Of a stretch of 32,000 bases of DNA, positions 30,743 through 31,762 are shown piece after piece; the stretch's first letter is position 1, and each line of letters begins with the position of its first letter. The translations under genes and the position numbers were made by a program. The DNA is from a bacterium (GTDB taxonomy: Bacteria > UBP7 > UBA6624). Below the pieces are notes generated by a model that searched no databases, had not been told where the DNA came from, and worked only from the letters and a program-made list of their open reading frames with translations. The DNA is taken from positions 143,137-175,136 of the forward strand of contig PBAU01000002.1 of NCBI GenBank assembly GCA_002716355.1, read 5' to 3'.

Positions 30743-31762
30743 TTATTTTTCTATTTTTGAGGTTGTATAAGCAACCATCCCTGGAATGTTGTCCATCGCT
30801 AATGAATATTCTCCCAAATGATCTTTTGTATTTGTTGCAACAATACCATCAGTTTCCAGTATGTCATTGAGTATTTTCAAACCTTCTTCACTGTTGTTTA
30901 GAGACAATAAAGCACGGGTAAGCATTTTTGTCATTCTTTTATCAGTTTTTTCTGGATTAATAACAATTGGGTGACTTGGAACATTACCAAATGCTTCCAA
31001 TTGTTCGAAATTATTTTTGGGCATGCACCAATCTGGAGCGTCTCCTTTTCCGCAATAATCATCCCATGTAGTTGATTTGACAAAAGCGACATCGCCTATG
31101 CCATCAGAAAGACACCTCAATGCTCCTGAATAACCACCATAAATGTCAGAAGAATCAGGAATTATGGCATTGTCAAAAAATGCTTCAATTGTGTATCTAA
31201 GACTTTCAATATCATTTTCATCACCAATAACATCAATAACACCTTGTCCAATCATTGTTCCAATAGGCATAATCATGCCAGCGCTCTTAAGCCATCCGGT
31301 ATGACAGGATATTTTTCCTTTTAGATCAGCATAGGTTTTGATTCCGCTATTTTTCTTCACAATTGCCTGAGCTGTGTAGTATGACTGCCCATTTGATTTA
31401 AGGTCAGCTGCAATTACTTCAAAACCATGTTTTTTCCAGCCCAGCCATCCTGCTCCTCCATCAAGGAAAGCAAGGTGGGCATGCCCGTAATGCAAAGCCT
31501 CAATAGCTGTACTGTGATTCGTAATTGGGTAAATTTCAACTGGCATATCTAAAGCCTGTTCAAGATATTTTGCTAATATTTCAGGATTTGCATCAGGATT
31601 CATGTAGTCATCTTTGATTTCAAAAGCAATGTTAATTACTTCTTCTTTTTCCGTTTTTGTTTTTGGTTCAATGGCTTGGTTGATCTCGTTGTTAGATTTA
31701 TTGTTGACTAAAAATAAGATGAGTGTGATAGCTGTAATCGTAACTATTATTTTGTTTTTCAT
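30743..31762 (-). CDS. Secreted single-lobe transferrin-like (PhnD/transferrin superfamily) binding protein
   Basis: The 339 aa product has a signal peptide. Four blocks align to the human serotransferrin N-lobe:
- AFLDGG vs VTLDAG
- SYYTAQAIVKKNSG...LKGKISCHTGWLKSAGMIMPIG vs FYYAVAVVKKDSG...[22 protein letters not shown]
- GYSGALRCLSDGIGDVAFVK vs [20 protein letters not shown]
- NVPSHPIV vs QVPSHTVV

GGAGGA lies 6 nt upstream of the ATG. Confidence 0.85.
   Translation of the reverse strand: MKNKIIVTITAITLILFLVNNKSNNEINQAIEPKTKTEKEEVINIAFEIKDDYMNPDANPEILAKYLEQALDMPVEIYPITNHSTAIEALHYGHAHLAFLDGGAGWLGWKKHGFEVIAADLKSNGQSYYTAQAIVKKNSGIKTYADLKGKISCHTGWLKSAGMIMPIGTMIGQGVIDVIGDENDIESLRYTIEAFFDNAIIPDSSDIYGGYSGALRCLSDGIGDVAFVKSTTWDDYCGKGDAPDWCMPKNNFEQLEAFGNVPSHPIVINPEKTDKRMTKMLTRALLSLNNSEEGLKILNDILETDGIVATNTKDHLGEYSLAMDNIPGMVAYTTSKIEK

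Follow-up and report, generated by a model that had tools for sequence, protein, structure and literature searches.

Textbooks treat transferrin as an animal protein, and accounts of its origin usually go no further than 'from periplasmic binding proteins'; the likeness of FbpA-type bacterial iron-binding proteins to it is regarded as convergent. Descent of transferrins and phytotransferrins from phosphonate-binding periplasmic proteins has already been put forward in print (McQuaid 2018, as relayed by the review PMC7676907), and a porin together with a periplasmic Fe(III)-binding protein is an accepted inorganic iron route in marine cyanobacteria (review, PMC7676907). Here we describe a gene for a transferrin-like substrate-binding protein in a 32,000-nucleotide stretch of a bacterial genome (NCBI GenBank assembly GCA_002716355.1, contig PBAU01000002.1, positions 143,137 to 175,136 of the forward strand; GTDB lineage Bacteria; UBP7; UBA6624), hereafter the window, in which position 1 is the first letter. 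Its product is a single-lobe transferrin homologue with an export signal or membrane anchor and with counterparts of all four transferrin iron ligands, and it belongs to a mainly archaeal family that is encoded with ATP-binding cassette (ABC) transporter components. We propose that the protein may serve the uptake of inorganic iron by binding Fe(III) with the help of carbonate or another anion, a reading to which we give a probability of about 0.6.

A single transferrin lobe encoded in a bacterial genome

The open reading frame (ORF) at 30743–31762 (minus strand) is intact, starts with ATG behind the ribosome-binding site (RBS) GGAGG and encodes 339 amino acids. An earlier note on this DNA had described an exported prokaryotic single-lobe transferrin homologue with a complete site, possibly an evolutionary intermediate or an iron-uptake component, and this central reading finds support in the profiles, residue conservation, haem locus and tree reported below. 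The product does have the length of one transferrin lobe, as that note stated, and the host is bacterial, as it also stated: the window encodes RecA, RNase Y, YmdB, CinA, SSB and IspG. Its RecA shares no more than 62% identity with relatives that carry a name, which makes them of no use for taxonomy. The identical protein is held in the public collection as 'hypothetical protein [bacterium]' (MBG97699.1) and occurs in assembly GCA_002456105.1. Recent horizontal transfer into the host genome was considered and rejected: the G+C content of the gene (GC, 0.363) and that of its third codon positions (GC3, 0.276) are the same as the means for the window, and gene order is conserved across four species-level lineages.

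Profile searches connect the protein with both transferrins and PhnD-type binding proteins. The Pfam Transferrin model (PF00405) scores 80.6 bits (E = 1.6e-22) over two stretches, fourfold its cut-off of 20.3, and Phosphonate-bd (PF12974), the top Pfam match, scores 102 bits over residues 63–313 (cut-off 27). Both PhnD-type models of NCBIfam stay below their cut-offs: TIGR01098 (phosphate/phosphite/phosphonate subfamily), nonetheless the best NCBIfam match, reaches 75.8 bits against 112.05, and TIGR03431 (PhnD) 44.3 bits against 261.1. A score with PhnD-type models alone, which the earlier note had named as an outcome that would refute its claim, is thus not what was seen. Among PDB sequences searched with phmmer, ovotransferrin and lactoferrin were matched in both lobes at E ~1e-31 and isolated transferrin N-lobes at ~72 bits (E 4e-19); the best 60 matches are all transferrin-family proteins, and the matches include Al-, Ti-, Cr- and Bi-loaded transferrins. 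An alignment with the human serotransferrin N-lobe, previously made by eye, is confirmed as homology by the PF00405 and PDB scores, and the likeness to transferrin is real homology, far beyond chance.

An AlphaFold2 model of the protein has a predicted local distance difference test score (pLDDT) of 89.9 and a predicted template modelling score of 0.81. Foldseek recovered transferrin lobes at 22–25% identity, in alignments spanning ~345 columns, against 16–19% for PtxB, AioX and ArrX, all with E ~1e-16; the best template modelling score, 0.68, is to 1NFT, an open iron-loaded ovotransferrin N-lobe. Among Pfam and NCBIfam matches up to E = 10 there are no FbpA/FutA substrate-binding families, and membership of an FbpA-like or ISIP2a-like family was rejected for lack of profile matches.

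Part of this evidence would suit a PhnD-type binder of phosphonate, phosphite or phosphate, in which the transferrin-like residues would serve oxyanion recognition without a metal. The top Pfam match and the best NCBIfam match are of that type, and Foldseek puts ArrX, PtxB and AioX level with transferrins in E value; the failure of both NCBIfam models to reach their cut-offs argues the other way.

The first 21 residues (31700–31762, minus strand; MKNKIIVTITAITLILFLVNN) make up a hydrophobic N-terminal export signal or membrane anchor, modelled as a helix at residues 3–19 and followed by a low-confidence disordered linker (residues 22–37, pLDDT < 50). Archaeal relatives have a lipobox Cys at the position of this signal. 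The earlier description of the protein as secreted stands as far as the helix goes but is weakened by the lack of a lipobox and of a clear signal-peptidase site, because of which the protein may be tethered to the membrane rather than released.

The iron and anion site

Ligands were mapped in three alignments, one by HMMER against ovotransferrin and two by MAFFT with the human transferrin N-lobe; the human sequence used had the expected residue at 8 landmarks and scored 584 bits on PF00405. Conservation was assessed in 119 single-lobe relatives (43–91% identity). The four iron ligands of transferrin correspond to D101 (Asp63; codon at 31460–31462), Y129 (Tyr95; 31376–31378), Y211 (Tyr188; 31130–31132) and H264 (His249; 30971–30973), all on the minus strand and each present in 119/119 relatives. 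The earlier assignments of Asp63, Tyr188 and His249, and the codon it gave for H264, agree with this mapping; its Y128 for Tyr95 is corrected to Y129, one residue further in the same SYYTAQ motif, and the HMMER alignment with ovotransferrin likewise gives Y129.

The N-terminus of the anion-binding helix, C153-H-T155-G-W-L-K159-S-A-G162 (31277–31306, minus strand), aligns with transferrin Cys118, Thr120, Arg124 and Ser-Ala-Gly: T155 matches Thr120, S160-A161-G162 match Ser125-Ala126-Gly127, and K159 takes the Arg124 position, an anion site as the note had described it. All ligand and anion-site columns, and the CHTGWLKSAG motif as a whole, are invariant among the relatives save for S160, which is Thr in one. 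The cysteine pair C153/C217 is present as claimed and is invariant in the 119 relatives, but its human counterpart, numbered 117–194 in the note, is Cys118–Cys194 by our numbering. K229 corresponds to transferrin Lys206, and Lys296 of the dilysine trigger has no counterpart in the alignment of the window protein. On the strength of homology, D101, Y129, Y211, H264 and T155 would lie together in one interdomain cleft.

Lys at the anion site, together with the known promiscuity of the transferrin site for hard tri- and tetravalent cations and the Al-, Ti-, Cr- and Bi-loaded proteins among the PDB matches, might point to another hard metal or metal–anion pair (Mn(III), Al(III), Ti(IV), vanadate or a lanthanide), or to phosphate as the synergistic anion, in uptake or detoxification. 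The Lys, however, has precedent: among eukaryote-type lobes whose ligand set is intact by sequence, the 55 sampled divide into 37 with Lys and 18 with Arg at the Arg124 position, a count on which Lys is not an oddity but the commoner state among such lobes. Moreover, only Fe(III) among these metals is essential and at the same time in short supply in the open ocean, the habitat of the family.

The site was also compared with the ligand pocket of E. coli PhnD, using a sequence that scores 267.7 bits on PF12974 and has no Transferrin match. We take the PhnD ligand contacts to be Y93, S127-T128-S129, H157/E158 and D205, a list reportedly given by Alicea and colleagues in 2011, and the numbering from the joint alignment agrees with it. 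In that alignment the Tyr95 column (Y129) falls on PhnD Tyr93, the His249 column (H264) on Asp205 and the Tyr188 column on the H157/E158 region, and the K-S-A-G helix cap lies opposite S127-T128-S129-G130; the anion loop, and the ligand columns in three cases out of four, sit on PhnD ligand-contact positions. Only Tyr93 is kept in the window protein: S-T-S has become K-S-A, D205 is His, and the H157/E158 region holds Tyr. Because the transferrin ligand columns coincide with the PhnD contact positions, we read this as the same pocket as that of PhnD, in which a set of hard-metal ligands has taken the place of oxyanion contacts. The changes at the S-T-S loop and Asp205 argue against phosphonate binding, and the invariant Asp-Tyr-Tyr-His set is a hard-metal signature, not an oxyanion one.

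Relatives are mainly archaeal and lie in ABC transporter operons

A scan of one genome per species found relatives at 396 loci, and the locus identities and operon counts that follow cover the best 80 of these. The closest four are in metagenome-assembled genomes (MAGs) labelled 'uncultured bacterium' (70–83% identity), and the next 76 are nearly all from Poseidoniales, Thalassarchaeaceae or Marine Group III archaea (42–53% identity). The lineage of the window is bacterial, but most members of the family belong to archaea (Poseidoniales, Marine Group II). Existing labels for its members read 'PhnD/SsuA/transferrin family substrate-binding protein' (NCBI), 'phosphonate transport system substrate-binding protein' and, in a further case, 'melanoma-associated antigen p97'.

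A family profile run against 1.84 billion representative proteins returned 1613 matches at E <= 1e-3, of which 124 reached E <= 1e-30. The strongest outside the single-lobe family include archaeal two-lobe proteins, multi-lobe membrane-anchored transferrins of Amoebidium, Ichthyophonus, Creolimax, Chromosphaera, Abeoforma and Corallochytrium, and a protein of the green alga Bryopsis. The family appears uncharacterised: the searchable full-text literature yielded no description of prokaryotic transferrin-like binding proteins, although the phylogeny of McQuaid 2018 may include part of the family.

At nearly every archaeal locus that is long enough, the gene order is substrate-binding protein, ABC ATPase, permease, and an ATPase and permease in this order are also found on an unassigned high-GC metagenome contig with the family member P0007. 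The partner permease meets the PhnE equivalog cut-off (218.9 against 216.7 bits) and the ATPase is most similar to PhnC. A typical Poseidoniales-type operon of transferrin-like gene, ATPase and permease is also present on a contig binned as Yoonia sp. (an alphaproteobacterial MAG; locus L082), which may reflect a binning error or a further transfer.

These operons are the other ground for a metal-free phosphonate, phosphite or phosphate binder. A PhnE-equivalog permease and a PhnC-like ATPase would be its natural partners, the names given by the Joint Genome Institute and NCBI read phosphonate or phosphate, and phosphonate transport has been reported as a core trait of Marine Group II (Tully 2019, PMC6336850). 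Against it, no phosphonate or phosphite catabolism genes lie within 8 kb at the three annotated loci inspected, and the bacterial copy is inside a haem/iron locus with no phosphorus genes (phn, ptx) near it. Taken with the changed pocket and the missed NCBIfam cut-offs, this makes such a binder unlikely in our view. The 'phosphonate transport' trait of Marine Group II probably corresponds to this transferrin-like operon and may need re-reading.

At ~13 of the 80 loci the same ABC operon encodes a two-lobe protein of ~700 amino acids (for example, L052 9977–12091). In several of these proteins (P0170, P0171, P0175 and P0177) the second lobe has no iron ligands, a parallel to melanotransferrin. 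Judging from their sequences, the two-lobe lipoproteins of Poseidoniales are the product of an independent tandem duplication.

The bacterial gene adjoins a haem-uptake cluster

In the bacterial clade the genes are ordered FecCD permease, ATPase, IsdE-like haem-binding protein, HutZ (165.6 bits), haem oxygenase, transferrin-like gene, a 303-amino-acid exported protein, an exported EF-hand protein and an M28 peptidase, an arrangement kept in four species-level lineages. The iron reading gains support for the bacterium because this haem-uptake and haem-oxygenase cluster adjoins the gene. PhnE and PhnC genes next to the transferrin-like gene are absent from the window and from all bacterial-clade loci compared.

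The 303-amino-acid protein (29665–30576, minus strand; ending ...CFALKF) has a signal peptide and, from sequence features, is probably an outer-membrane beta-barrel. In the bacterial clade it always lies directly downstream of the transferrin-like gene (66–100% identity); a homologue search placed it in the lineage of the window only, in 10 clusters, and it has no Pfam, NCBIfam or PDB match. No Rho-independent terminator is found on the coding strand between the two genes. The next conserved gene, recognized by Pfam EF-hand families and synteny, encodes an exported multi-EF-hand protein (28467–29633, minus strand; start probably the ATG near 29596) and is followed by the M28 peptidase. The EF-hand protein shows faint similarity to lanmodulin (24.8 bits, far below cut-off) and also to XopAW.

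A metal other than iron could find support in this neighbourhood, which holds the multi-EF-hand protein with its faint lanmodulin-like match and, upstream, a His-rich exported peptide. The haem-uptake genes point instead to iron, and with the frequency of Lys among eukaryote-type lobes and the marine scarcity of iron also in view, we regard another metal or metal–anion pair as quite unlikely.

The bacterial protein might alternatively have no part in transport and be a periplasmic sensor or buffer of the AioX/ArrX kind, an iron store or a chaperone. That would account for the lack of a permease or ATPase adjoining the gene in any bacterial locus, and the sensor partners AioX and ArrX are among the top structural matches. 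But no histidine kinase or response regulator adjoins the transferrin-like gene in the bacterial loci inspected, the family clearly belonged to an ABC importer in its ancestral setting, and a conserved partner that is exported and probably in the outer membrane fits a transport relay better than signalling. We rate a non-transport role the least probable of the alternatives considered.

A proposed role in ferric iron uptake

Under our preferred reading of the protein as an Fe(III)-binding component of inorganic iron uptake, we infer that Fe(III) would be held by Asp101, Tyr129, Tyr211 and His264, that Thr155, Lys159 and the N-terminal end of the S160-A161-G162 helix would carry a synergistic oxyanion, for which carbonate is the likeliest candidate, and that both domains would close around the metal. 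In Poseidoniales, the lipid-anchored protein would deliver what it binds to the PhnE-like permease and the PhnC-like ATPase, whose genes come directly after its own, and the archaeal operon would be an inorganic Fe(III) ABC importer, not a phosphonate importer. The bacterial lineage would have lost the neighbouring permease and ATPase genes, and the transferrin-like gene would have moved into an iron-acquisition locus. There, we infer, the protein would most likely serve as a periplasmic high-affinity trap for unchelated ferric iron that arrives through the neighbouring, probably outer-membrane, protein and is handed to an inner-membrane transporter encoded elsewhere.

Several observations weigh against this proposal. 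The Phosphonate-bd score (102 bits) exceeds the Transferrin score (80.6 bits), and the partner permease in archaea is PhnE-like, the source of the phosphonate/phosphite annotation. The AlphaFold2 model of the protein is in an open conformation. No cognate permease for the import step is encoded from ~10 kb upstream to ~31 kb downstream of the window gene, and no iron-responsive regulator site was identified. The AlphaFold2 model of the 303-amino-acid neighbour is unusable (pLDDT 28.5) and its outer-membrane assignment is weak. Finally, transferrin-type sites take other hard cations too (Al, Ga, Ti, Mn(III), V), which makes Fe(III) the likeliest but not the sole possible cargo.

If Fe(III) is bound, the 'phosphonate uptake' genes of planktonic archaea that rank among the most abundant would encode a carbonate-dependent iron importer. 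In the surface ocean, such an importer would amount to a major way of taking up iron that has gone unrecognised, and it would matter for how the iron and phosphorus cycles are modelled and for what ocean acidification brings about. The host bacterium would have, beside haem uptake, a route for unchelated iron made of an outer-membrane protein and a binding protein.

Origin of the transferrin site

From PhnD to human transferrin, the Pfam scores shift step by step. E. coli PhnD has 268 bits on Phosphonate-bd and no Transferrin match; the single-lobe family of the window protein has ~105 and ~85 bits, respectively; ichthyosporean two-lobe proteins have 92–111 and 211–216 bits; and the human transferrin N-lobe has 24 and 584 bits.

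A neighbour-joining tree was built from 88 four-ligand lobes and an outgroup (267 columns, 60 bootstraps) and rooted on a single PhnD, that of E. coli; it is rough, being based on a distance method with one outgroup and on sampling biased by profile score. Its basal grade consists of prokaryotic Asp-Tyr-Tyr-His proteins without the Lys/Arg and the Cys pair, including proteins of Nitrosopumilus and Heimdallarchaeota. Those of Nitrosopumilus (P0252) and Heimdallarchaeota (P0249) are PhnD-type proteins that have Asp-Tyr-Tyr-His and Thr but a Gly where transferrin has Arg124, and they lack the Cys pair. Above this grade, a clade with 97% support splits into the family of the window protein (73%) and all eukaryotic lobes (97%), among which, as sampled, holozoan protists branch first. 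The bacterial clade of the window (100%) falls in this rough tree among lipoprotein-type members that are mostly archaeal where named. The phylogenetic comparison suggested in the earlier note accordingly places the family between PhnD-type proteins and eukaryotic transferrins.

The tree fits a prokaryotic origin of the transferrin site, without proving it, and the family seems to be nearer to eukaryotic transferrins than other prokaryotic relatives are. A wider proposal, which we advance tentatively and hold to be possible rather than probable, is that the family and the deeper Asp-Tyr-Tyr-His archaeal proteins are the surviving prokaryotic stock of eukaryotic transferrins. The iron site would have evolved inside a PhnCDE-type importer before eukaryotes acquired the protein, the earliest eukaryotic forms would be those of unicellular relatives of animals, and the Marine Group II 'phosphonate transporter' would be a carbonate-dependent Fe(III) importer. 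A ligand-complete prokaryotic family that is wired to a PhnC/PhnE-type transporter and has two-lobe forms of its own makes the origin of the iron site testable.

Leader region and other features of the window

Upstream of the transferrin-like gene, the 3′ end of a small exported His-rich ORF lies at 31895–32000 (minus strand) and runs off the window edge; the full ORF is at 3888–4512 of locus L087. Its product consists of a signal peptide, CEKC, a long (HEHG)n repeat and ECSEC directly before the stop. Only the lineage of the window has an ORF of this kind between the haem oxygenase gene and the transferrin-like gene. The promoter and leader of the ORF, and the start of its signal peptide, are homologous to the ancestral leader that the transferrin-like gene has in sister lineages. 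It is probably co-transcribed upstream of the transferrin-like gene. Public assemblies are broken or contain Ns inside the (HEHG)n repeat.

Between this ORF and the RBS of the transferrin-like gene are two 24-nucleotide G/C-rich hairpins, GTAGGGGGG-NN-GTAAGTGCCCCCC, at 31787–31810 and 31826–31849 (minus strand). The pattern has 2 matches in the window, against 0 expected by chance, and is unique to that spot. The hairpins have no Rfam match at E up to 1 and no T-run after them; a riboswitch or known RNA was rejected on the missing Rfam match. Directly 5′ of the RBS, a conserved short leader hairpin, CCTTGT-ATTAAA-ACAAGG, is seen at L001 9950–9985, L010 1000–1030 and L087 3845–3875. It has one apparently compensatory pair between lineages and is a possible regulatory element of the locus.

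Elsewhere in the window, a CsoR-type metal-sensing repressor gene stands directly upstream of a gene for a heavy-metal P-type ATPase with an HMA domain (17352–19783, plus strand). Upstream of this pair, at 13223–14338 (plus strand), an ArsP_2-type metal exporter with ten transmembrane segments is encoded beside a DsbA/YceI fusion protein.

Comparison with known systems

The closest animal counterparts of the window protein are the lobes of eukaryotic transferrins (serotransferrin, ovotransferrin, lactoferrin and melanotransferrin; PF00405), which share its fold, the Asp-Tyr-Tyr-His set, Thr, the Ser-Ala-Gly cap, one disulfide pair and Lys206 (K229). Eukaryotic transferrins are bilobal, at ~680 amino acids, by tandem duplication, whereas the window protein is one lobe of 339 amino acids with a prokaryotic export signal and neither a Lys296 counterpart nor Cys-rich insertions. 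It has Lys in place of Arg124, although many non-vertebrate lobes have Lys there as well. The eukaryotic proteins are ligands for receptor-mediated endocytosis; relatives of the window protein are ABC importer subunits.

With the PhnD class (E. coli PhnD, PtxB, HtxB, AioX and ArrX; PF12974) the window protein shares the fold, homologous pocket positions and its highest Pfam score, and in archaea its relatives work with a permease that matches the PhnE equivalog and an ATPase like PhnC. It differs from that class in staying below the NCBIfam cut-offs, in an apparent metal-ligand set where the oxyanion contacts would be and in having no phn or ptx genes nearby. FbpA, FutA and IdiA, the 'bacterial transferrins', do the job proposed here, capturing unchelated Fe(III) in the periplasm together with a synergistic anion to supply an ABC importer, but through a Tyr-rich site in a different sequence family, to whose models the window protein has no Pfam match; its own homology to transferrin is direct and statistically significant in sequence.

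The diatom phytotransferrin ISIP2a is likewise marine and depends on carbonate to capture inorganic Fe(III) at the cell surface, and descent from phosphonate-binding proteins has been proposed for it as well (as relayed by PMC7676907). ISIP2a has no detectable Pfam relationship to the window protein, is eukaryotic and is internalised by endocytosis. Also close, on the eukaryotic side, are the bilobal membrane-anchored transferrins of Ichthyosporea and Corallochytrium (Amoebidium P0179, Ichthyophonus P0189), which are among the best eukaryotic scores on the family profile (383 bits for P0179), score substantially on both Pfam models and share the CHTG-x-x-K-SAG motif and the ligand set with the family of the window protein. 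Unlike it, they have a eukaryotic signal peptide, two or more lobes, Cys-rich insertions and a C-terminal transmembrane anchor.

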